NCBI GenBank assembly: GCA_035717165.1
Contig: DASTIX010000014.1
Span: 503-64,502, forward strand
Reading direction: 5' to 3'
DNA length: 64,000 nucleotides
Origin: Candidatus Dormiibacterota bacterium
GTDB lineage: Bacteria > Chloroflexota > Dormibacteria > Dormibacterales > Dormibacteraceae
Part shown: piece after piece, positions 32,537 through 43,847 of the stretch
How positions within the stretch are numbered: the stretch's first letter is position 1
How the letters are laid out: the number at the start of each line of letters is the position of its first letter
Made by a program: the position numbers and the translations under genes
Notes under the pieces: model-generated
Databases searched by the model: none
Told to the model about the DNA's origin: nothing
What the model saw: the letters and a program-made list of their open reading frames with translations, nothing else

Positions 32537-33159
32537 TCGACTCGGAGCTGATCGCGTTCGCCGGGGTCTCGCTCCTTCTAGCGATCACGCCCGGTCCCGA
32601 TATGGCGGTGGTGACCAAGAACGCCCTGGCGCACGGCCGGCGCGGCGTTCTGCTGACCACGAGCGGCATCGCGCTCGCTCTCGTGATCTGGGTGACGGCG
32701 ACCGCGGTCGGTCTGTCGGCGCTGCTTCGTACTTCGGGCGAAGTGCTGCTGCTGCTGAAGATCGTGGGCGCGCTTTACCTCGCCTACCTCGGCGTGCGCA
32801 CTCTGCTCGAGTCACGCGATCGCCCCGCCGATCTGCTCGCAGGCGTGCCCGCAGCCGCCCCTGCACACGCGGTGTTCCGCCAGGGATTCTTCTCGGCGAT
32901 CAGCAACCCCAAGCTCGGGGTGTTCTTCGTGACGTTCCTGCCGCAGTTCGTGCTTCCGGGCCAGGCAGTGCTGCCCCGATTGCTCGAGCTTGGAGTCATC
33001 TTTGCGGTCATCGGCTGGACCTGGATGAACGTCTACGGCTTCTTTGTGACGCGCCTTCGCGCGGTCATCACCGCACCTCGGGTGCGGCAGTGGATGCAGC
33101 GCGTGACCGGCGTCGTGCTCCTGGGCTTCGGCGCGCGGCTCGCGCTGGAGCGCGTCTAG
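32533..33159 (+). CDS. LysE/RhtB-family amino-acid exporter
   Basis: 208-aa ORF with 5-6 TM segments. ATG overlaps the GNAT stop as ATGA. Confidence 0.8.
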   Translation: MIDSELIAFAGVSLLLAITPGPDMAVVTKNALAHGRRGVLLTTSGIALALVIWVTATAVGLSALLRTSGEVLLLLKIVGALYLAYLGVRTLLESRDRPADLLAGVPAAAPAHAVFRQGFFSAISNPKLGVFFVTFLPQFVLPGQAVLPRLLELGVIFAVIGWTWMNVYGFFVTRLRAVITAPRVRQWMQRVTGVVLLGFGARLALERV

Positions 33160-33929
33160 CCACCCCACACGAACTCTGTGCACAGGTAGTCGATCGCCTG
33201 GCCCTCGGGCATGCCGTTCGGAAAGTTCTTCACGTCGCTCGGGTTGAGCGCGAAGATCGCGACGGTCACGCCGTTCCTGGCGGCCGCGATCACGGCAAAC
33301 CGCACCTTGACCGCGGTTTGTGATGCACCGACGAAGCTCGCCGAATAGATCTCGCCGATGCCGTCCTGGTCGCCGACGTGCGCGCCCTTGAGCGGGCCGA
33401 CGACGGTCACGTCCTGGAACTGCGTCGACGGCAGCGACGACACCGTGTTCTGCAGAGCCTGATTGGTGTTGCTGCCACTCGAGCCGGCGACGGAAACGTA
33501 ACCGGCCTTCGTCCCGAGCACGATGCTGCCCGCGTCCTGCGACCGCACGGTCCATTCGGACGAGTAGTTGACCTGGAACTTGTAGGCCGAGCTTCGATAG
33601 GACGCCTCCTCGGCGAGAGGCGTGACGAATTTCGGCGAGCAGTTGGACGTGCAGGTCGAGTGGCTTCCTGACGCAAACTGCGCGACCGCGATGCCGCCGA
33701 TGATCACCGCAGCGACGATCAGGACTACCACCAGGCCTCCGGCGATGAGCGCCGGCCCGAGACGGTACTGGCCGCGTGGTGGAGATGGCGCGGATGGGTA
33801 GCGATACATCGGTGGCGCGGACACGGCCTGGGCGGCGACGGGCGTTCCGCACCGTCCGCAGTAGACAGCGCCGGGCGCGAGCGGCGCTCCACACCTCCCG
33901 CAGTAGCGCGCGGCCTGGGGATACGCCAT
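33156..33929 (-). CDS. zinc-ribbon / single-TM / extracytoplasmic-domain protein (hypothetical)
   Basis: From ATG 33929: MAYPQAARYCGRCGAPLAPGAVYCGRCG, a Pro-rich linker, the TM segment LIAGGLVVVLIVAAVIIGGIAVA, then a ~190-aa beta-rich domain. Confidence 0.6.
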   Translation of the reverse strand: MAYPQAARYCGRCGAPLAPGAVYCGRCGTPVAAQAVSAPPMYRYPSAPSPPRGQYRLGPALIAGGLVVVLIVAAVIIGGIAVAQFASGSHSTCTSNCSPKFVTPLAEEASYRSSAYKFQVNYSSEWTVRSQDAGSIVLGTKAGYVSVAGSSGSNTNQALQNTVSSLPSTQFQDVTVVGPLKGAHVGDQDGIGEIYSASFVGASQTAVKVRFAVIAAARNGVTVAIFALNPSDVKNFPNGMPEGQAIDYLCTEFVWGG

Positions 33930-35059
33930 CAAACTGTCCCCGCGAGCTTCGACCGGACCTTCGGCGCGGCTGATCGCGCAGCGCCGCAGGCGGGGCAGAA
34001 CGCCATCGCCGGCACGATGCGATGACACTCCGGACAGATCGAGTCCGGACCGATCTCATGCTCGGCGCCCTCGATGAGGAGTGCATCGTGGATGACCAGG
34101 CGGACGAAGAGAAGAAGGACCAGCGCTGCGACCACGAGGATTCCGAAGTCAAGCACCTGGTCCTGCACGACGAAGGCGAGGAGCGCCAGCAACAGCTGTA
34201 CGCCGAATCCAACCGCGAGCGCGGCCGGGACTCGCGAGTACCAGGGGCGCCCGGTCCGCCGGCGGTCGAAACGTCTGGACCAGATCGCCGATGCGATCGT
34301 CGCCGTCGTACAGGCGTTGATCAGCATCACGAGCAGACCGGCACGTGTCAGCCGGATGGCCCAATCGATCTCCGAGCCGTTTCCGACCAGCGGCTGCGTC
34401 AACAGCGGCCAAAGCTGCGTCAGCGTGCGGGAAAGCGTGAGGCCGAGCGCGGAGGCCGCACCGAAAATGAGGCCGTCGAGAGGCTCGCGAAACTGCGGCC
34501 TGAACCGATACAGCAACATCGGCCCCGCCAGCATCAACGCCTGGTCGACGATTGGGATCACGATGACGGCGAGCAGGAACGCGCCTCCCCGGTCGCCGGT
34601 CATCAGCCGGTCCGCGAGCGAACCGCCGAACGCATAGGCCGACACGAACCCAAGCAACGCGCCCGCGACCATCGTCGCGCCGAGCACCGTCCACGGCTCT
34701 TCCTCGTAGACCTCGACCTCGTAGAGGTAGATGAGGTAAAGGACCGGCAGGACCAGGACCGCGGCGGCGGTCGCCGGGGCGAAGAGATGGAGGGCCGCAA
34801 GGAACAGCACCACCGCCCCACCGACGATCAAGCCGATTCGAAAAGGCGCGCCGCGACGATGGGGTAGGTGAGGGAAGAGCGTCGTGACGATCGAGAGGTG
34901 TGCGACGTGCTCGGTCGGCGACGCCGCAAAAGAGTCCGTCCTGCGCTTGCTGCCCGCAGCGAGGTGCGCGCCGCAGTGCCCGCAGAAATCACCGACCGGC
35001 ACGACCGAACCACAGTGCGGGCAGGTGACGAGCGGCGGTCCTTCCACCGGCTCGCTCAC
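33929..35059 (-). CDS. PrsW-like polytopic membrane protein with N- and C-terminal zinc ribbons
   Basis: GTG 35059 overlaps the sedolisin stop as GTGA. CPHCGSVVPVGDFCGHCG at the N-terminus and CPECHRIVPAMAFCPACG at the C-terminus. EVYEEEPW and DGLIFGAASALG resemble PrsW motifs. Confidence 0.6.
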   Translation of the reverse strand: MSEPVEGPPLVTCPHCGSVVPVGDFCGHCGAHLAAGSKRRTDSFAASPTEHVAHLSIVTTLFPHLPHRRGAPFRIGLIVGGAVVLFLAALHLFAPATAAAVLVLPVLYLIYLYEVEVYEEEPWTVLGATMVAGALLGFVSAYAFGGSLADRLMTGDRGGAFLLAVIVIPIVDQALMLAGPMLLYRFRPQFREPLDGLIFGAASALGLTLSRTLTQLWPLLTQPLVGNGSEIDWAIRLTRAGLLVMLINACTTATIASAIWSRRFDRRRTGRPWYSRVPAALAVGFGVQLLLALLAFVVQDQVLDFGILVVAALVLLLFVRLVIHDALLIEGAEHEIGPDSICPECHRIVPAMAFCPACGAARSAAPKVRSKLAGTV

Positions 35060-36627
35060 GAGCCGCCGCCCTTGACGTACCGGATCCACGCCTCGTCGAG
35101 GGCTGCGCCGTCCATGCTGCCCCATCCGGTCGCGAAGTCCCACCCTGTGCCGGCGTCGTAGAAGAGGTTGTTGCCGGCCGCGATGTCGTGAAATGGCCGC
35201 GGGCTGAGCTTCGTGCCGTTCTCGCCCATCCAGTAGATCGCGGGATTGGCGAAGCCCGCTTCGCGTAGCCCTTTCTGCTTCAGGTCCTGGTTGATCAGCG
35301 CCACCGTCCCGGCCCACAGCGGAGTGGCCGCGGACGTGCCGCCCGCCTGGTCGTCGTGCCCCCGGAAGATGATGTGGAAGCCCGTCGACGGATCCGCGTC
35401 CGCGGCTACATCCGGAACCTGTCGTTCTCCATGCGCACCCGGCTGCGCTTCGTTCCGCTGGTAATCGGGCGTCCCGTAGAACTGGCTCGCGCCGCCGCCG
35501 CTGCCGCTCTGGTCGATCGGGCTGCCCCAGGCGTACTCCTGGAAGTACCCGCCCTGCGACGACTGGAACACCGACGTCCCACCGACCGCCGTGACGGTCG
35601 GCAGGGTCGAGGGAAAGCTCGCGGCGGCGGACTGATCCAGGCCGCACGTGTAGGCGCCGCTGTCCCCGCTGGCGACCAGATGCGTCATCCGCTGCGCGAC
35701 GGCGCGGTCCTCGATCGCGGCGTAGGTGTTGCGCACGCCGCCTGGAGTGTCTGTCTCGCACGAGCCGAGACTCTCCGAGATGATCGACCCGAGGTGATCG
35801 GTGACCATCTGGTCGAACGCGCGGTCCGTGTGCCCGAAATCGGCAGCCGAGAAATAGACGACCAGCTTGGCGGAGGGCGCCACCGAATGCGCGATCTCCA
35901 GGTCGAGCACCGTCTCGCCGGCGGGCTTCTCGGGCGTGCCCCAGCTCGGATCGCGCTTGGTCGTGAGCAGCGGCTCGAAGGCGGGGAGGCCAAACTTCGA
36001 AGCGAATCTGTCGAGGTCGCTCGTGTTGGGCATGTCGTCGATCTCAGGCAAGAGGATCGTCTGACCGCTGCCGTCCAGGCCTGCGTCGCGAAGCGGCTTG
36101 AGATCGTAGAAGCTCATGACGTCGACCGGTATCAGGCCTCCCGCCCTTATCGCGTAGCGCTGCAGGCGCGGATAGTCGTCCAGCCCGCTCACTCCGACGC
36201 TCACCGCGGCGATGGCGGGCGGCATCCGCGGTGGGGCGAGAGCCGCGTAAAAGGTTCGACCGTCGGGAAGGCGGTAGTCATGGATCTCGATCCCGAGCAG
36301 CTCCGCTGCGGCCGACGCCGGCCCGTCGGCAAGGATGAGGCTCGACGGTGGACGCGACCACGCGTGCATCCCTCCGAGCTCGAGCGCGTCGACGGCGGCA
36401 GCGATCGACTGGTCGCTCGGACGAGGCGAGCGCAGGCCGAAATCAAGGCTGACCGTAACGCTCGTACCGGCCGGACCTAGATCGGTCGACCGCTGAATCG
36501 CGCTGATCAGCGTGGGCGGAGGCTTGGAGATGGCGATGACGTCGTGGCGTGGCCCGGTCGAAGGCGAGGCGGCGCACGCGGAGGCGGCCGCGATGGTGAC
36601 GGCGAGGGCCACGGCCCGAAATTTCAT
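35056..36627 (-). CDS. S53 (sedolisin/kumamolisin-like) serine peptidase with propeptide
   Basis: Signal peptide MKFRAVALAVTIAAASAC. ETVLDLEIAHSVAP, VASGDSGAY and the catalytic Ser motif GGTSAATPLWAG. Confidence 0.85.
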   Translation of the reverse strand: MKFRAVALAVTIAAASACAASPSTGPRHDVIAISKPPPTLISAIQRSTDLGPAGTSVTVSLDFGLRSPRPSDQSIAAAVDALELGGMHAWSRPPSSLILADGPASAAAELLGIEIHDYRLPDGRTFYAALAPPRMPPAIAAVSVGVSGLDDYPRLQRYAIRAGGLIPVDVMSFYDLKPLRDAGLDGSGQTILLPEIDDMPNTSDLDRFASKFGLPAFEPLLTTKRDPSWGTPEKPAGETVLDLEIAHSVAPSAKLVVYFSAADFGHTDRAFDQMVTDHLGSIISESLGSCETDTPGGVRNTYAAIEDRAVAQRMTHLVASGDSGAYTCGLDQSAAASFPSTLPTVTAVGGTSVFQSSQGGYFQEYAWGSPIDQSGSGGGASQFYGTPDYQRNEAQPGAHGERQVPDVAADADPSTGFHIIFRGHDDQAGGTSAATPLWAGTVALINQDLKQKGLREAGFANPAIYWMGENGTKLSPRPFHDIAAGNNLFYDAGTGWDFATGWGSMDGAALDEAWIRYVKGGGS

Positions 36628-37505
36628 GGGACGGTAGCTTCCCAGACCTCGGCCTCGTATACCACCTCAAACCCGAGCTTGAGGTACACGTCATAGGCTC
36701 GCATCGGGTTGAGCGCGTCGACATACAGCGAGACGTGACGAGCGCCACACCGCTGCAGTCGGTGGAGCTCTTCCGCGACGAGCCAAGCCGCGAGGCCATG
36801 GCGTCGATGCTCAGGGACGGTGCCGACTGAGCTCACGAGACCCAGCGGCTGCGGCCTGGAGTCATCTGGAAGATCGTCCATCTCCGCGAGCGTGATGGCG
36901 GCGGGCTCGCGGCCTTGCGACGTCACGGCCATCAGGCAGAGCTCGGGAGCCTTGCCTGCCACGATCTCGGCTTCGGAACGCGGTGCCGATCGCCAGTGAT
37001 CGGCGAACGAGCGGTTGAACGTGTCGGCCCATGTACCGGGCGCCGCACCGGCCGCGTCGATCAGCTCGTAGCCCAGCGACGGCTCGACGCTCGGCAATAC
37101 GCCGGTCAAAGATCGGTCCATGCGCCACCACGGGCGTACCGCCTCGAGCCCCAGCTCGCGAAGGCCCGCGCCGTGTCCCTTCGCCGCCATCGTGTGTATG
37201 ACGGTCGCGCCGGCCGCTCGCGCGTACTGAACGCCCCACGCAACCATATCCGCATAGGCACCGCCGCGGCCCGCTGCATAGATGTCGGCGAGCACGCCAT
37301 CCGGCGATGGGCGGGCAGTCACGAACACTGCGCCTTCGAGATGTCCATCGGCTTCGATGACGCGCGAGCTGGCGTCCCAGTCGAAACGCGCCAGTCGCGA
37401 TCGCGTGCGTTCTTCGCTCGGCGCGGAATCCTGCCGCCGCACTTCCACCTCGTGGCGCCAAACGTCGACGATCTGATGCACGTCCCCCAGGCGTCCAGGT
37501 CTCAA
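36624..37505 (-). CDS. double-GNAT acetyltransferase (MshD-like architecture)
   Basis: 293-aa ORF with two acetyltransferase-like halves. The C-terminal half carries HRRHGLAAWLVAE. TTG 37505 overlaps the CDF stop. The stop overlaps the sedolisin ATG as ATGA. Confidence 0.65.
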   Translation of the reverse strand: MRPGRLGDVHQIVDVWRHEVEVRRQDSAPSEERTRSRLARFDWDASSRVIEADGHLEGAVFVTARPSPDGVLADIYAAGRGGAYADMVAWGVQYARAAGATVIHTMAAKGHGAGLRELGLEAVRPWWRMDRSLTGVLPSVEPSLGYELIDAAGAAPGTWADTFNRSFADHWRSAPRSEAEIVAGKAPELCLMAVTSQGREPAAITLAEMDDLPDDSRPQPLGLVSSVGTVPEHRRHGLAAWLVAEELHRLQRCGARHVSLYVDALNPMRAYDVYLKLGFEVVYEAEVWEATVP

Positions 37506-38926
37506 GCGGTTACGCGTGTGACTACCTCGTGGACCTCGGGAACGCGGTTGAGGATCATCTCCTCGAGCTGACTCTCGACGTCGTGCGCGTGCTCGAGCGT
37601 CATGTCGCCGGCGACCTCCGCGACGACATGCGCGTGGATGCGGTTGCGCCTGTCGCTGAGCTCGACGTCGACGAGCCGCTTGACGTCGGGATGCGACTCC
37701 ACCACCTCCCGCACGCGCTCCGCCAGTTGCGTCCGGCGCGACGTGACGTCCTCGCCCGGGACGACTTCGGGCTCGATCGGCTCGAGGTGAATGTCGATGC
37801 GACCGACCTCAGGAAGCTCGGCCTTGATCGACCGTTCCAGGTCGCGACTCGTGTTGCTTGCGTTGGCAAGCTGCAGCTCGCCGGGCAGCTTGGCGTGCAT
37901 CGTGAGGTGGAGTGACCCGTCCGCCTCGCGTTCGACGGTGACGTTGTGAAGATCGCGCACGCCGCCGTTGCGCGCGGCGGCGGCATGTATCCGCTCCACG
38001 ATGTCGAATTGCCGCTGCTCTCCCTGCACCGAGACGGCGAGATCGAGATCGGGGAGAACCGATCGAGCGCGAGTCTTGACGTCGTCGACCAGCGCGCCCG
38101 CCGCCTCCACCGAGAGCATGCGGCCGGTCGTGATGCTGGCGTCGCCGATGAGAGTGGGACCGGATCTCCGAACCCTGACTGAGCGGACGTCGCGCACACC
38201 GTCGACCTTACGAATCGCGTCGCGCAGCTCCTTCTCGGCGCCGGCCGGTGCGCGGTCTATGAGGATGTCGCCTGACCGCCACGCAAGCAGACCGGCCGCC
38301 CGGCCTACGATCCCGGCGACCAGAAGCGCGGCAACCGAGTCGGCCCACGTGAGTCCGAACCGCACACCGACCAGACCCGCGAGTACACCAAGCGTGGCGA
38401 GGACGTCGGACAGGCGGTTGGTGGCGTCGGCGAGCATCGCCTCGCTCGAAGCCATCCGGCCGACGCGCAGCAACACGGCCGCACGGCCGGACTCGATGAC
38501 GAGCGTGGCGATAAGGAGCGCAAACGCGTAACCCGCCGCATCCACTGGCGGTCCGCCGAAAACCAGGCGGCGGACAGCCTCGAACACGATCAGGACGGCG
38601 GTGACGATGAGCAGAATCCCCTCGGCGAAAGCGGCCAGGTTCTCGGTGCGGCCGTGGCCGTAGGGGTGCTCGGTGTCCGCGGGCTTGCGCGACGTGCGGA
38701 CGGCGACCAGCGTGAACACGCTCGCGGCCAGGTCGAGAAACGAATGCGCAGCCTCGCTGAGGATGCCGAGGCTCCCGGTCAGGAGTCCGACGACGAGCTT
38801 GGCCAAGACCAGGACGACGCCGACGCCGACCGAGGCGATGGCGACGAGCTCCGGGCGGCGGCCGAAACGTGTCACGGCGCCCACTTTAAAGGCACGTTTA
38901 ACCGTCGCCGGGAGCGTGGTAAGCAC
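37502..38926 (-). CDS. cation diffusion facilitator transporter with three tandem C-terminal cytoplasmic domains
   Basis: TM core with LSEAAHSFLDLAAS and HPYGHGRTE. aa 231-474 contain three ~80-aa ZT_dimer-like repeats. Confidence 0.8.
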   Translation of the reverse strand: MLTTLPATVKRAFKVGAVTRFGRRPELVAIASVGVGVVLVLAKLVVGLLTGSLGILSEAAHSFLDLAASVFTLVAVRTSRKPADTEHPYGHGRTENLAAFAEGILLIVTAVLIVFEAVRRLVFGGPPVDAAGYAFALLIATLVIESGRAAVLLRVGRMASSEAMLADATNRLSDVLATLGVLAGLVGVRFGLTWADSVAALLVAGIVGRAAGLLAWRSGDILIDRAPAGAEKELRDAIRKVDGVRDVRSVRVRRSGPTLIGDASITTGRMLSVEAAGALVDDVKTRARSVLPDLDLAVSVQGEQRQFDIVERIHAAAARNGGVRDLHNVTVEREADGSLHLTMHAKLPGELQLANASNTSRDLERSIKAELPEVGRIDIHLEPIEPEVVPGEDVTSRRTQLAERVREVVESHPDVKRLVDVELSDRRNRIHAHVVAEVAGDMTLEHAHDVESQLEEMILNRVPEVHEVVTRVTA

Positions 38927-38949
38927 CTCATGAAAATTCCCTACAGGAG

Positions 38950-39444
38950 GTGCGTGGCAAGTTGAGCATCACGTGGTGGAGTCCAAACTCGGACGTGCGC
39001 AGTGCGGCCCGGGCGATGGACCGTCTGATCGAGCAGTTCTTCGGAGAGCAGACGCCCGACAGCAACGCTTCCTCGGCCCCGCCGACCTACTACCTGCCGG
39101 TCGACATCTTCGAAAGCGATACGGCGTACACGCTCGTCACATCGGTGCCAGGTTTCAAGGAAAGCCAGGTCGAGGTCACGTTCGACGACGGGATCCTCTC
39201 GATCAAGGCGAAGGCCGACGAGCACAGAGCGCCGGGCCGCTGGCTCCGACAGGAGCGACCGTACGGCTCGTTCGTCCGGCGGCTCGAAGTGCCGCAGCAG
39301 GTCGAGACGGGCAAGATCAGCGCCCACTTCGACAATGGCGAGCTAACGATCACGATCCCGAAGACGGCCAAGCCGAAGCCGGTAAAGATCGAGATCGGCA
39401 CCGGAGGCAAGCCGGTCGACAAGCAGATCGCGGCGAAGGCGTAA
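38950..39444 (+). CDS. Hsp20/alpha-crystallin small heat-shock protein
   Basis: PVDIFESDTAYTLVTSVPGFKESQVEVTFDDGILSIKA...FDNGELTITIPK. AGGAGG at 38945-38950. TTG 38962 is perhaps the real start. Confidence 0.85.
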   Translation: MRGKLSITWWSPNSDVRSAARAMDRLIEQFFGEQTPDSNASSAPPTYYLPVDIFESDTAYTLVTSVPGFKESQVEVTFDDGILSIKAKADEHRAPGRWLRQERPYGSFVRRLEVPQQVETGKISAHFDNGELTITIPKTAKPKPVKIEIGTGGKPVDKQIAAKA

Positions 39445-40529: not shown

Positions 40530-41942
40530 CTAACCGCCTCCGCCCGGACCTTCGAGACCTGGCTTGGTCATCTTGCCGAGATCGAGCACCTTGTTCAGCT
40601 CGCGCTCGCTGACGCCGCGCCCGCGCGCCAGCTGCCGGATCGAGCGGCCGGTGCGGATCGACTCCTTCGCCAGCTTCGCGGCTTCGTCGTAGCCGATCAC
40701 GGGATTGAGCGCGGTCGCAAGCATGGGGCTGCGCTCGACGAGCTCGGGTCCGCGGTCGGTCGCCTGCAGGCCTTCGACGCAGCGCTCGGAAAAGTTGCGC
40801 GTTGCGGCAGCGAGCAGGGTGATCGACTCCAGGATCGCCTGGGCTGCCACCGGCATCATGACGTTGAGCTCGAAGAAGCTTCCGCTCTGCGCCGAGACGA
40901 GCACCGTCGTGTCGTTGCCGTAAACGCGCGCGATGACCATGAGCAGCGACTCGATGATCACGGGGTTGACCTTGCCCGGCATGATGCTCGACCCGGGCTG
41001 GGTTTCAGGAAGGCGCAGCTCACCCAGGCCTGCGATGGGGCCGGTTCCCATCAGGCGAATGTCGGAGCCGATCTTCCAGAGGCTGGTGGCGATCGTGCGC
41101 AATCCGCCATGAGCAGCAAGAAGGGCGTCGAGCGTCGCCTGCGCGTGGAAGTGATTGTTGGTCTCCCTGACCGCCACGCCGGTCGCTTTGGCGAGCCGAG
41201 CGGCGGTCGCTTTCGCGTACTGCGGATGTGAGTTGATGCCCGTGCCAACCGCTGTGCCTCCCAGCGGCACGCGCGCAAGCTCTTCGATCGCACCTTCAGC
41301 ACGGCGAATCGATTCCTCGGCCTGGCCGGCGTAACCCCTGAACTCCTGACCGAGACGAATTGGGGTGGCGTCCTGCAGGTGCGTGCGGCCCGTCTTGACG
41401 AGGGGCCAGAACTCCTTGCTCTTCGCGTCCAGCGCGCGCTCGAGCCGCTGCAGCGCTGGGATGAGCTCGTCTTTGATCGCCATCGCGGCCGCGAGCTGGA
41501 TCGCAGTCGGGATCACGTCGTTCGACGACTGGCACAGGTTGACGTGGTCGTTGGGATGAACCAGCTTGGAGCCGCGCTCGCCGCCGAGGATCTCGGTGGC
41601 GCGATTGGCGATGACCTCGTTGGCGTTGGTGTTGGTCGACGTCCCCGAACCGGTCTGGTAGACGTCGATCGGAAACTGATCGTCGAGCTTGCCGTCGATG
41701 ACCTCTTGCGCGGCCGCGGCGATCGCGCGTGCGCGGCGCCGGGGGAGGAGGCCGAGGTCGCGGTTGGTCTGAGCAGCGGCGCGTTTGACCACGCCGAGCG
41801 CACGGATGAACCGGCGCGGCATCGGATCGCCGGAGATCGGGAAGTTCAGGACGGCGCGCTGGGTCGAGGCGCCGTAGTACGCGTCGGCGGGCACCTCCAT
41901 CTCGCCCATGGAATCCTTCTCGATTCGCGTTCGCCTAGCCAA
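40530..41942 (-). CDS. fumC: class II fumarate hydratase
   Basis: RIEKDSMGEMEVPADAYYG, QTGSGTSTNTNANEVIANRA, and the signature GSSIMPGKVNP. TTG 41942 gives 470 aa. ATG 41909 is an alternative start. The 1083-aa ORF extension is rejected. Confidence 0.9.
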   Translation of the reverse strand: MARRTRIEKDSMGEMEVPADAYYGASTQRAVLNFPISGDPMPRRFIRALGVVKRAAAQTNRDLGLLPRRRARAIAAAAQEVIDGKLDDQFPIDVYQTGSGTSTNTNANEVIANRATEILGGERGSKLVHPNDHVNLCQSSNDVIPTAIQLAAAMAIKDELIPALQRLERALDAKSKEFWPLVKTGRTHLQDATPIRLGQEFRGYAGQAEESIRRAEGAIEELARVPLGGTAVGTGINSHPQYAKATAARLAKATGVAVRETNNHFHAQATLDALLAAHGGLRTIATSLWKIGSDIRLMGTGPIAGLGELRLPETQPGSSIMPGKVNPVIIESLLMVIARVYGNDTTVLVSAQSGSFFELNVMMPVAAQAILESITLLAAATRNFSERCVEGLQATDRGPELVERSPMLATALNPVIGYDEAAKLAKESIRTGRSIRQLARGRGVSERELNKVLDLGKMTKPGLEGPGGGG

Positions 41943-41969
41943 CGAAGGTGATTCTAAAGTTCCGTTCAA

Positions 41970-42869
41970 ATGCGTCTGGCGGCGCTCGACATCGGCTCCA
42001 ACACCATCCACGTCCTGGTCGCGGACGTCGTTCGCGGCAAGCTCGTCGACGTCGGTCACTACGTGCAGGAGCCGGAGCTCGGTCCGCAGGTCGCCAAGCG
42101 CGGCGCGATCGGCAGCCGGGCACGCGTGGCGCTGCGGGCGCTGCGCACGGTCATCACCGAAGCGCGGCAGCACGGCTACGACGAGTTGATCGCCTGCGCG
42201 ACGGAGGCGGTGCGGCAGGCGCGAGACGGGCCGGATTTCGTGAAACAGGCGAGCGCGGCGATCGGTGCGCCGGTTCGAATCATCTCGGCCAAACGCGAGG
42301 CGGAGCTCAGCTTTCTCGGGGCGGCCAGCCGGCACGCGATCCGGCGCGAGTGGGCGCTCGTCGACATGGGCGGCGCGTCCACCGAGATCGTGATCGCCGA
42401 GGGCCACATGATGCTGAAGTCGACGAGCCTGCCCATCGGCTCCGGCGTGCTGGCGTCGACCTACCTCGCCGACCCTCCCAAGCCGGAGCAGCGCGCACGC
42501 CTGCGCAAGGCGGCGCTGCGCGAGCTCGGAGCGGCGCCGGACGGAGACGTCGAACGGCTCGTCGCTACTGGCGGCACCGCCTCCAACCTGCCCTCGATCC
42601 TGGCGCGGCGCAATCCGCCCATGGTCCTGACCACCGCCGACCTGCTGACCTGCGAGGGCCGGCTCGACGGCCACCGCGCGAGCCATCTCGCCGCCCGATA
42701 CGGGCTGCCGGCCAGCCGGATCAAGGCGCTCCGTGCCGGCATCGAAGCTCTGCTTCTCCTCCTCGACTGGTACGGCCTGGCGCTGCTTCACGTCAGCCAC
42801 GAAGGCCTGCGCCACGGAATGCAGCTCGCATACCTGGAACGAGGAGAGGATTGGTGGCGGGACGGGTAA
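41970..42869 (+). CDS. Ppx/GppA-family phosphatase
   Basis: MRLAALDIGSNTIHVLVADV...VDMGGASTEIV, an ASKHA-fold Ppx/GppA N-terminal pattern. Confidence 0.8.
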   Translation: MRLAALDIGSNTIHVLVADVVRGKLVDVGHYVQEPELGPQVAKRGAIGSRARVALRALRTVITEARQHGYDELIACATEAVRQARDGPDFVKQASAAIGAPVRIISAKREAELSFLGAASRHAIRREWALVDMGGASTEIVIAEGHMMLKSTSLPIGSGVLASTYLADPPKPEQRARLRKAALRELGAAPDGDVERLVATGGTASNLPSILARRNPPMVLTTADLLTCEGRLDGHRASHLAARYGLPASRIKALRAGIEALLLLLDWYGLALLHVSHEGLRHGMQLAYLERGEDWWRDG

Positions 42870-42878
42870 ATTGAACTC

Positions 42879-43847
42879 GTGGAACACGTCAGCGAGACCG
42901 GTGGGAGGCTGCGGCTGGCCCTCGGCCTGACGCTCGCGATCCTCCTGGTGGAGTTCGCGGGCGGACTGCTGTCTCATTCGCTGGCCCTTCTGTCCGATGC
43001 CGGTCATGTGCTGACCGACGTCTTCGCGCTCGGCCTCGCGTGGTTCGCGGTCGAGCAATCGCGACGCCCCGCCGACCAGCGTCGGAGCTATGGCTACCAG
43101 CGTGTCGGGATACTGGCGGCGCTTCTCAACTCTGTGACGCTGGTCGTGATCGTCATCGCGATCGCCGTCGAGGCCGTTCGCCGATTGATGGCGCCCGAAC
43201 CCGTGCACGGTGGAACGGTCATCGCCACGGCGCTGGCCGCGATCGCGATCAACGCCTTCGTGATCCTCACGCTGCGCAGCAGCGGCCGCAACCTCAACCT
43301 CCGGGCGGCGCTCCTCCATGTGACCGGTGACGTTGCCGCATCGGCAGGCGTCGTGGTGGCGGGCATCGTCATTCTGCTGACCGGCTGGCTCTACATCGAC
43401 CCGATCCTTTCCCTCGCGATCGCATCGCTCATCGCCTACGGCGCTTGGGGCATCGTGCGCGAGACGGTCAACCTGCTGATGGAGGGCACTCCGCGTGCGG
43501 TCGACGTGGCGGCCGTGACCAAGCAGATCACGAAGACGCCGAAGGTGATGGGCGTGCACGACCTCCACGTCTGGGCGCTGGCCCCGGACCAGCTCGCGCT
43601 CAGCTGTCATGTCGTGGTCGACGACATCTCGCTCGCGGATGCCGAGCATGTCGTGCGTGACCTTGAGCACCGGTTGTGCGACGGCTTCGCCATCGGGCAC
43701 ACGACGATCCAGGTCGAGAGCTGCCACCCCTGCGGCGAGATCCATCACGGACCGGGTGAGCACAACCACCCGCACGAGCACCCGGTGTTTATCTCTGAGA
43801 GACCAGCGCCTCCTCGCGCTGCAGGATCCTCCGCGCCACCGCTATAG
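42879..43847 (+). CDS. CzcD-type cation diffusion facilitator transporter
   Basis: HSLALLSDAGHVLTDV, LHVTGDVAAS, and the His-rich tail HHGPGEHNHPHEH. Confidence 0.9.
   Translation: MEHVSETGGRLRLALGLTLAILLVEFAGGLLSHSLALLSDAGHVLTDVFALGLAWFAVEQSRRPADQRRSYGYQRVGILAALLNSVTLVVIVIAIAVEAVRRLMAPEPVHGGTVIATALAAIAINAFVILTLRSSGRNLNLRAALLHVTGDVAASAGVVVAGIVILLTGWLYIDPILSLAIASLIAYGAWGIVRETVNLLMEGTPRAVDVAAVTKQITKTPKVMGVHDLHVWALAPDQLALSCHVVVDDISLADAEHVVRDLEHRLCDGFAIGHTTIQVESCHPCGEIHHGPGEHNHPHEHPVFISERPAPPRAAGSSAPPL

Follow-up and report, generated by a model that had tools for sequence, protein, structure and literature searches.

Five genes on the minus strand of a 64-kb stretch of Dormibacterota DNA (contig DASTIX010000014.1; the whole stretch is referred to as the window) were analysed here. 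In the order in which they are read, they encode a CDF-family cation efflux transporter, a GNAT acetyltransferase, a pro-sedolisin of peptidase family S53, a PrsW-like polytopic membrane protein and a single-pass protein, called ZnR5, with a zinc ribbon, a transmembrane (TM) helix and an ectodomain (Table 1). The last three genes are referred to as the trio. An earlier note on this DNA had described five open reading frames (ORFs) at these positions, joined by TTGA, ATGA, GTGA and TGATG junctions, and all of this can be read directly from the sequence. Its assignments of the CDF, S53, PrsW-like and zinc-ribbon/TM proteins were all upheld by profile searches, while its count of three C-x2-C-G ribbons needs a small correction, as all six half-sites are present and one of them reads CxxCH, not CxxCG. 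For PrsW-like and ZnR5 the mechanical ORFs extend further upstream than the starts chosen in that note, and these internal starts are supported since they coincide with the N-termini of dozens of homologues in the alignments.

The conservation of the gene junctions was scored across 80 species-level Dormibacterota genomes. Besides the overlaps listed in Table 1, the PrsW-like and ZnR5 genes abut exactly in 20/78 of the relatives, and the S53-PrsW-like junction is also a 4-nucleotide (nt) overlap in the distant loci L082, L083, L084 and L166. Within the window, a 1- or 4-nt overlap is possible at about 4 of 26 other same-strand junctions, a background rate that is approximate because the crude gene caller, based on GC content at third codon positions, mis-called the PrsW-like gene. 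The run of four overlapping junctions is unusual and exceeds chance, yet it is typical for operons. Judging from the gene overlaps only, the five genes most likely constitute one translationally coupled transcript in the window genome; a consensus scan for promoters and terminators was uninformative, as it returned 0 promoter-like and 3 terminator-like sites, equal to the shuffled expectation.

Table 1. Features of the five-gene locus in window coordinates; the last row gives positions within five distant loci.
Feature	Position	Strand	Evidence
CDF-family cation efflux transporter, three tandem cytoplasmic ZT_dimer-type domains	37502..38926	-	Pfam + TIGR01297
TTGA stop/start overlap, CDF-GNAT	37502..37505	-	sequence; 4-nt overlap in 43/58 relatives
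GNAT acetyltransferase, 293 amino acids, MshD-like two-domain length, TTG start	36624..37505	-	Acetyltransf_1
ATGA stop/start overlap, GNAT-S53	36624..36627	-	sequence; 4-nt overlap in 50/59 relatives
Pro-sedolisin (peptidase S53), lipoprotein-type signal, ATG start	35056..36627	-	Peptidase_S8 + Pro-kuma_activ
GTGA stop/start overlap, S53-PrsW-like	35056..35059	-	sequence; 4-nt overlap in 69/76 Dormibacterota relatives
PrsW-like (PrsW/APH-1-fold, 8 TM), probable pseudoprotease, class A, GTG start	33929..35059	-	PF13367 + AlphaFold2 + hhalign
N-terminal putative zinc ribbon of PrsW-like, predicted cytoplasmic (C13, C16, C26, C29)	34973..35023	-	alignment
C-terminal putative zinc ribbon of PrsW-like, predicted cytoplasmic (C342, C345, C355, C358)	33986..34036	-	alignment
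TGATG one-base overlap, PrsW-like-ZnR5	33927..33931	-	sequence; 1-nt overlap in 52/78 relatives
ZnR5, single-pass zinc-ribbon/TM/ectodomain protein, ATG start	33156..33929	-	Zn_Ribbon_1 + AlphaFold2 + Foldseek
ZnR5 cytoplasmic putative zinc ribbon, residues 10-27	33849-33902	-	Zn_Ribbon_1
ZnR5 TM helix, residues 63-85	33675-33743	-	
ZnR5 PsbP/Mog1-fold ectodomain, residues 93-257	33159-33653	-	AlphaFold2 + Foldseek
Intact ZnR-PrsW-ZnR paralogue	L083 5033-6214; L087 4076-5185; L089 2873-3994 (-); L091 3914-5131; L166 6001-7176		

The S53, PrsW-like and ZnR5 genes were found together in each of the 80 Dormibacterota loci as far as its contig extends, and a CDF gene lies upstream of them in about 68 of the 80, which are all those with enough DNA. 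In this phylum the neighbourhood is syntenic as a whole, running from a TrkA-type K+ channel, sometimes followed by a divergent Hsp20 gene as in the window, through CDF, GNAT and the trio to a LysE gene, the orientation of which flips among the loci. Because the whole neighbourhood is conserved, linkage within the phylum says little about function. The decisive comparison was with distant homologues. An exhaustive search for the PrsW-like family over 1.84 billion representative proteins, clustered at 50% identity, gave 760 members, many of them 590-700 or about 1000 amino acids long. Distant gene contexts were obtained from four look-ups and a metagenome scan with a 7-sequence alignment, and 69 non-Dormibacterota metagenome loci were recovered, 51 of them with at least 1.5 kb of upstream DNA. 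The trio was present in 50/51 of the latter; the S53 gene lies directly upstream of the PrsW-like gene on the same strand in 47/51, usually with a 4-nt overlap, and in three more the arrangement is another one, namely fused (L081), S53-ectodomain-PrsW (L083) or PrsW-ectodomain-S53 (L163). The one remaining locus, L147, is without S53. Downstream, the distant PrsW-like sequence either carries a fused extension of 218-297 amino acids with one TM helix or is followed, with a 4-nt overlap, by a separate gene for about 265 amino acids, and a hidden Markov model of the ZnR5 ectodomain matched 68/79 such segments, fused or adjacent.

The distant loci form 36 clusters at 80% identity, and their flanks are unrelated: 136 flanking proteins match 177 Pfam families, none of which occurs in more than three proteins. 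Neither CDF nor GNAT was found beside the trio in any non-Dormibacterota trio locus of these 36 lineages. Moreover, the members of the trio are joined in single polypeptides. Two-part fusions, in which the PrsW-like protein with its two ribbons continues into a TM helix and a ZnR5-like ectodomain, make up 34/115 full-length representatives, and ten proteins (including P0327, P0336, P0375 and P0398-P0404) are three-part fusions that also carry a C-terminal pro-sedolisin. Since the three genes recur in distant loci with unrelated flanks, and as fusions, without CDF or GNAT, the conserved unit is the trio. Of the functional unit that the earlier note had proposed, the part made up of the sedolisin, PrsW-like and zinc-ribbon/anchored proteins gained support, as these genes are linked in every related genome examined and fused in other lineages. 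One obligatory system of all five genes did not stand, given that outside Dormibacterota the trio goes without CDF and GNAT and that GNAT is lost in nine loci even within the phylum, and the metal-dependent or metal-regulated role that the note had suggested found no support. The synteny survey it had proposed as a test thus gave a divided answer, with a three-gene unit linked in related genomes and a five-gene unit not linked outside Dormibacterota.

Some further observations concern the distant loci. In L088 and L089 several S53 genes lie in arrays, every one with a ZnR5-like ectodomain gene of its own behind it, and there is only one PrsW-like gene; the ectodomain protein is therefore suggested to be the direct partner of S53. 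For the lineages outside Dormibacterota, neighbours of the PknH_C, LppX/LprAFG-type lipoprotein, DUF7157/DUF7159 and P450 kinds give no more than a hint of Actinomycetota. A search of the PLSDB plasmids with a fused homologue gave no match and hence no annotated host in culture.

The S53 protein matches kumamolisin in the PDB (1t1e, E 9e-44), and its residues E238, D242, D322 (oxyanion) and S432 align with kumamolisin E78, D82, D164 and S278. These catalytic residues are kept in 144-149/144-149 (100%) of the module-linked S53 proteins. A prodomain extends from about residue 30 to 165, with a match to Pro-kuma_activ (PF09286; 25.6 bits against a cut-off of 23.5) at residues 69-151, and a pro-kumamolisin domain is also present in the distant and fused homologues. 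The protein begins with a lipoprotein-type signal with Cys18. Orthologues keep the signal followed by a lipobox-type Cys, and the full catalytic set is in place, in agreement with the secreted S53 protease with a lipoprotein-like signal described earlier; other lineages have a TM anchor instead. The tether lies N-terminal to the prodomain, and the triple fusions agree with this, running from ectodomain through prodomain to catalytic domain, so that autoprocessing would free the mature enzyme from the membrane. The module-linked proteins share with kumamolisin, sedolisin and TPP1 (MEROPS S53) the Ser-Glu-Asp triad and oxyanion Asp, the pro-kumamolisin domain and the GWD..TG.GS segment. However, those enzymes are freely secreted or lysosomal, whereas the module S53 proteins are tethered by a lipoprotein Cys, a TM anchor or fusion and are always paired with two membrane partners. 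Close to the active site they also share two conserved Cys (in GSCE and GAYxC) that kumamolisin lacks. Assignment to the mycosins was rejected (20 bits against a cut-off of 279).

PrsW-like passes the Pfam threshold for PrsW-protease (PF13367; 45.7 bits against 23.5, residues 121-310), but reaches only 15.9 bits against the NCBIfam equivalog NF033739, whose cut-off is 225. Its AlphaFold2 model, built from a 39-sequence alignment, has a predicted local distance difference test (pLDDT) score of 91 and eight long helices. In a Foldseek search the top and only meaningful PDB neighbour was APH-1 (5a63_C), with a probability of 0.99, a TM-score of 0.57 over the target, an E value of 0.26 and 18% sequence identity; a PDB search with the sequence returned spurious zinc-finger matches only. 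The two four-Cys ribbons at the ends of the protein, putatively zinc-binding by their sequence, are paralogous to each other (BLASTP), and none of the eight Cys varies among 39 members of the family, which are 27-72% identical to the window protein. Both ribbons are predicted to be cytoplasmic because the number of TM helices is even and the 262-276 loop is positively charged. The ribbons evidently trigger annotation pipelines (JGI among the labellers), which explains the odd automatic names of family members: 'RsiW-degrading membrane proteinase PrsW', 'ribosomal protein L32', 'RNA polymerase subunit RPABC4/Spt4' and 'rRNA maturation endonuclease Nob1'.

The PrsW motifs of the protein are degenerate. 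With hhalign, PrsW-like was aligned to a sequence that we take to be that of B. subtilis PrsW and that scores 321 bits against NF033739; the alignment (85-92% probability, first two motifs only) placed D172-Q173-A-L-M176 on E75-E76-S-L-K79, changing EExxK into DQxxM, and R211 on E114 of the GFxxxEN motif. The canonical motifs also include a histidine in TM helix 5 and HxxxD in TM helix 6 (PMC4602095), and by family alignment and helix order N248 and Q288 would take the places of the histidines. A site table of 190 family members revealed two classes at positions 173/176/211/248/288. The S53-adjacent class, to which the window protein belongs, has Q/M/(S,A,T,R)/(N,S,A)/Q, while its sister class has E/K/E/(Q,H)/H, the canonical PrsW pattern. 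The residues common to both classes all lie at the cytoplasmic face and comprise the ribbons, STLFPxLP, YxYEVxVYEDEP, D195-G196 and R320/H324/E330. Compared with canonical PrsW, PrsW-like has in common the superfamily and fold, the polytopic membrane build and the YxYxxxxYxxEP and xxDGxxxG motifs. It differs in the EExxK-to-DQxxM change, in R, S or A at the E114 equivalent and N and Q at the presumed His equivalents, in an extra N-terminal helix (8 TM in total), in a zinc ribbon at each end, in having no sigma/anti-sigma neighbour and in its obligate linkage or fusion to both a sedolisin and a PsbP-like protein. PrsW-like is thus a probable pseudoprotease, judging from the replaced residues, and the scaffold of the earlier note is a fitting description of a protein without its catalytic motifs.

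ZnR5 begins with a ribbon, which a Pro-rich linker joins to the TM helix and so to the ectodomain. C10, C13, C24 and C27 are invariant in 30 orthologues; over the wider family the N-terminal ribbon is lineage-variable, and many separate homologues have none. No sequence-family match to the ectodomain was found in the profile search, but its AlphaFold2 model (pLDDT about 88) gave 27 Foldseek matches in the PDB at E<=1e-3, with PsbP first and with Mog1, Apa, LpqN, DcrB and Tsi3 among them (E down to 1.8e-5, TM-scores 0.55-0.60 over the target). The PsbP/Mog1 fold serves protein-protein contacts. A juxtamembrane extracytoplasmic Cx2-4C motif of the ectodomain (C93-x3-C97 in the window) is kept family-wide, fusions included, and Dormibacterota ZnR5 has a third invariant Cys, C250; these Cys and the Cys pair of S53 may point to disulfides or a metal site. 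We also considered whether ZnR5 is a ZAS-type anti-sigma factor and rejected this, as the cytoplasmic part is too short and without HxxxCxxC, and no sigma gene is present.

Since S53 keeps all its catalytic residues and PrsW-like has lost the canonical ones, an inactive scaffold with a docking domain is the simplest model of the trio. We propose, with moderate confidence and from sequence comparison, that the three products assemble 1:1:1 in the membrane, where the sedolisin zymogen would be held or regulated by a PrsW-fold scaffold without activity of its own together with a docking domain of the PsbP type. A physical complex is suggested because the trio occurs as 1:1:1 fusions, because the gene order is permutable and because L088 and L089 carry S53-ectodomain pairs without a PrsW-like gene of their own. 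In such a complex, the S53 zymogen would be exported and tethered at the outer face of the cytoplasmic membrane by the lipoprotein anchor N-terminal of its prodomain, and S53 would be the sole active protease of the trio. The PrsW/APH-1-fold protein with its eight TM helices and a cytoplasmic ribbon at each end, being without the canonical glutamates and lysine and probably without the histidines, would act as a non-catalytic scaffold or regulator, and the PsbP/Mog1-fold ectodomain of ZnR5 might dock S53 or its substrate. The pseudoprotease and the PsbP-like protein together may hold the zymogen and control its autoactivation, its release or its access to substrate. The cytoplasmic face, with three zinc ribbons and an acidic/His cluster (E114, E116, E121, E192, D195, R320, H324, E330), could serve as the input side.

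In B. subtilis, PrsW cleaves RsiW, after which extracytoplasmic peptidases trim the product, and the trio could be read in the same manner: PrsW-like would be an active site-1 protease, ZnR5 its anti-sigma-like substrate, S53 would trim the ectodomain stump, and the ribbon fragment would be freed as a signal. Such regulated proteolysis agrees with the Pfam match of PrsW-like, with the layout of ZnR5, whose cytoplasmic domain, TM helix and ectodomain resemble a single-pass anti-sigma factor, with the invariance of H324, E330 and D195 and with an intact PrsW paralogue adjoining the trio in five distant loci; Zn-ribbon-fused PrsW proteins have also been classed as probable signalling peptidases (Zhang et al. 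2012, PMC3482391). We nevertheless consider it unlikely, as the whole S53-adjacent class has other residues in place of EExxK, at the E114 equivalent and at both presumed His equivalents. Moreover, no sigma or anti-sigma family was found in the window operon or among the recurrent neighbours of the trio in 36 lineages, where no other partner recurs either. The cytoplasmic part of ZnR5 is only a ribbon of about 30 amino acids and a Pro-rich linker, with the ribbon missing in many separate homologues, and a stable fusion of 'protease' and 'substrate' in at least 34 representatives fits a partner better than a substrate.

Alternatively, all five genes could encode a metal-dependent or metal-regulated proteolytic or maturation system, with CDF providing or removing the metal and GNAT modifying one of the components. 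Sedolisins bind Ca2+, the three ribbons and the acidic/His cytoplasmic cluster could bind metal, and the 4-nt overlaps of CDF with GNAT and of GNAT with S53 are kept in most Dormibacterota genomes scored (Table 1); but every non-Dormibacterota trio locus lacks both CDF and GNAT, the loss of GNAT in nine Dormibacterota loci leaves gaps of 16-227 nt, the synteny of the K+ channel and LysE makes co-occurrence within the lineage weak evidence, and CDF proteins export cytoplasmic metal while the active protease is extracytoplasmic, all of which leaves this system with a small probability. The triple fusions start with a PrsW-like domain and end in secreted enzyme domains, an arrangement that resembles the PrsW-toxin architecture of Iyer 2011 (PMC3239186) and Zhang 2012 (PMC3482391), and PrsW-like might by analogy be a conduit or releasing peptidase of a PrsW-dependent export device as in polymorphic toxins, with S53 as the effector cargo. 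This is highly improbable, since PrsW-like has lost the catalytic residues, what comes after the C-terminal ribbon is an ordinary TM segment, separate S53 proteins have Sec or lipoprotein signals of their own, and the neighbours are unrelated housekeeping genes, with no immunity-like genes or variable C-terminal cassettes; besides, Zhang et al. keep Zn-ribbon versions apart from toxin-linked ones (PMC3482391). Finally, the genes may have no functional relation and lie together through inherited synteny in a slowly rearranging lineage, in keeping with a Dormibacterota neighbourhood that is conserved beyond these genes. For the trio this is barely conceivable and effectively refuted by its presence in 50/51 distant loci with unrelated flanks, by the permuted gene order and by at least 44 fusion proteins, while it is a possible explanation for CDF and GNAT.

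Several observations weigh against an inactive scaffold that controls S53, or against its limitation to three genes. The histidine positions of PrsW (N248, Q288) were mapped by family alignment and helix order, as the hhalign alignment ends at motif 2. A non-canonical catalytic centre in PrsW-like is possible because neither the inactive-looking nor the active-looking class shows any change at R320, H324, E330 and D195. In five distant loci, a catalytically intact PrsW paralogue (E..K, GFxxxE, H) adjoins the trio (Table 1) and constitutes, with the degenerate PrsW-like protein, a presumed enzyme-pseudoenzyme pair. No such intact paralogue was found in the 64-kb window, and intramembrane cleavage may be part of the ancestral mechanism, supplied in trans here. 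Across Dormibacterota, 4-nt overlaps keep CDF and GNAT tightly coupled to the trio, and a functional tie specific to this lineage may exist; a search of RNA-seq and metatranscriptome data gave no run containing the locus.

The proposed complex of scaffold, docking domain and zymogen has a bacterial parallel. In Staphylococcus aureus, the extracytoplasmic serine protease SpsB is bound and inhibited by SpbR, a membrane protein that resembles CAAX proteases but has no proteolytic activity (PMC12260438). An inactive polytopic protein of the CAAX/CPBP-PrsW superfamily that regulates a membrane-anchored serine protease is the mechanism proposed here, where it is inferred from genes. In contrast to PrsW-like, SpbR is of the Abi/CPBP type and has no zinc ribbons, its partner is an S26 signal peptidase, and there is no S53 zymogen and no third PsbP-like subunit; the trio has both gene fusion and translational coupling, and for the SpbR and SpsB genes we saw no sign of either. 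APH-1 is likewise a non-catalytic PrsW/CPBP superfamily member that scaffolds gamma-secretase (Pei et al. 2011, cited in PMC4602095). APH-1 and nicastrin would resemble the trio in that a non-catalytic scaffold of a protease complex works together with a single-pass ectodomain protein, but the former is eukaryotic with an intramembrane aspartyl protease as catalytic subunit, whereas the trio has a serine-carboxyl protease with a soluble domain outside the membrane. In the iRhom-ADAM17 pair, an inactive relative of intramembrane proteases with a cytoplasmic extension controls the maturation and activity of a prodomain-bearing extracellular protease; folds, enzymes and kingdom are unrelated to the trio, and the likeness is an analogy only. 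Within bacteria, some PrsW domains were found fused to Zn ribbons and guessed to be signalling peptidases (Zhang 2012, PMC3482391). Those proteins and the PrsW-fused polymorphic toxins also have an N-terminal PrsW followed by C-terminal extracytoplasmic domains, but the relevant sections assume an active peptidase and mention no S53 or PsbP-like partners (PMC3239186, PMC3482391), while the trio has a degenerate site and no toxin/immunity logic.

In a search of the full-text literature, no paper joined PrsW to a sedolisin, to S53 or to kumamolisin, and none dealt with pseudoproteases of the PrsW kind. The parts belong to known families. Their association, their fusion and the degeneration of the active site seem not to have been described before, and the earlier remark that the combination is not a recognised system agrees with this search. 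Taking the proposal further, the trio might be a new bacterial transmembrane protease switch, in which a dead PrsW/APH-1-fold protein would couple a cytoplasmic input to autoactivation or release of the sedolisin zymogen. The ribbons and the acidic/His face would receive the input, possibly a metal or protein ligand, and the PsbP-like ectodomain would hold the zymogen; such a switch would have evolved from an active PrsW, the intact paralogue of which still lies beside the module in some lineages, and would be, by analogy, a prokaryotic counterpart of the iRhom-ADAM17 or APH-1/nicastrin scaffolds. We put this forward tentatively and regard it as rather doubtful in its full form.

Pseudoproteases that control true proteases are well established in eukaryotes (iRhoms, APH-1), and SpbR (2025) is, to our knowledge, the only one known in bacteria. 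If true, the proposed complex would be a second, independent bacterial case of a pseudoprotease paired with a protease, and a far more widespread one, with 760 family members, among them some from abundant uncultured soil phyla. The physiology of bacterial sedolisins is, as far as we know, poorly understood, and the module gives a rare hint at their deployment at the cell surface. It also gives context to three kinds of 'hypothetical' or mis-named proteins, and PrsW-like proteins of the S53-adjacent class should not be annotated as active proteases. The module is widespread in soil bacteria, well defined and experimentally approachable, its function being proposed from comparative genomics, and the natural two- and three-part fusions are ready constructs for structural and biochemical work.

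The two remaining genes of the operon are lineage-specific add-ons, probably outside the trio mechanism. CDF matched Cation_efflux (PF01545, 5e-45), ZT_dimer (PF16916) in three stretches and TIGR01297 (233.9 bits against a cut-off of 82.35), and it passed no equivalog cut-off (FieF, MntE, ZitB and others tried); it probably belongs with the upstream K+ channel in ion homeostasis. Its residues from about 223 to 474 (window 37502-38230) comprise three tandem cytoplasmic ZT_dimer-like domains, where one is usual. The second and third of these C-terminal domains are weakly self-similar, and the 474-amino-acid architecture is kept across Dormibacterota orthologues. In GNAT, Acetyltransf_1 (31.4 bits against 20.7) covers residues 183-279, the C-terminal half only, with which the best PDB match (7q3a_A) also aligns, and no significant profile match was found for the N-terminal half. 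Of the 'double GNAT' named in the earlier note, the C-terminal domain therefore stands, while the N-terminal one is without statistical support. Identification as the mycothiol synthase MshD was rejected (35 bits against a cut-off of 163). GNAT is a dispensable operon mate, being missing in 9 of about 68 Dormibacterota loci (L006, L015, L025, L026, L034, L036, L060, L065 and L066), in which a gap of 16-227 nt separates CDF from S53.

Just 23 nt separate the GTG start of CDF at 38926 from that of the divergent Hsp20 ORF (window 38950-39444). Homologues align from about CDF residue 18, and a later start is suspected for this reason, so that the true start may be GTG 38884 or 38875. The Hsp20 ORF has an internal ATG (M23), and both genes probably begin further in, leaving a divergent promoter region of roughly 130 nt (window 38875-39016). 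The Hsp20 gene is polymorphic, as an insertion: in the window and in L017, L022, L023, L025, L028, L075 and L078 it lies on the opposite strand, with the K+ channel on one side and CDF on the other, while most other Dormibacterota lack it and have the channel gene immediately before CDF in the same orientation. In L046 (12029-12573) the LysE homologue is split into two overlapping tblastn pieces, which may reflect a frameshift or a pseudogene. Ten loci with the Dormibacterota-type gene order and 60-73% identity to the window (L002, L014, L040, L047, L049, L054, L056, L062, L066 and L074) sit in metagenome-assembled genomes labelled Acidoferrum, Verrucomicrobiia, Eisenbacteria, Nitrosotalea or Nitrosopolaris (archaea), Gemmatimonadales or Sulfotelmatobacter, and these labels are probably due to binning contamination or mislabelling. 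Elsewhere in the window, the mechanical ORF of 1083 amino acids at 40530-43781 on the minus strand is a composite, of which only the C-terminal stretch of about 470 amino acids resembles a class II fumarase/aspartase-type lyase. Its upstream part overlaps a plus-strand ORF (41970-42869), the start of which looks, by eye, like a Ppx/GppA-type phosphatase.

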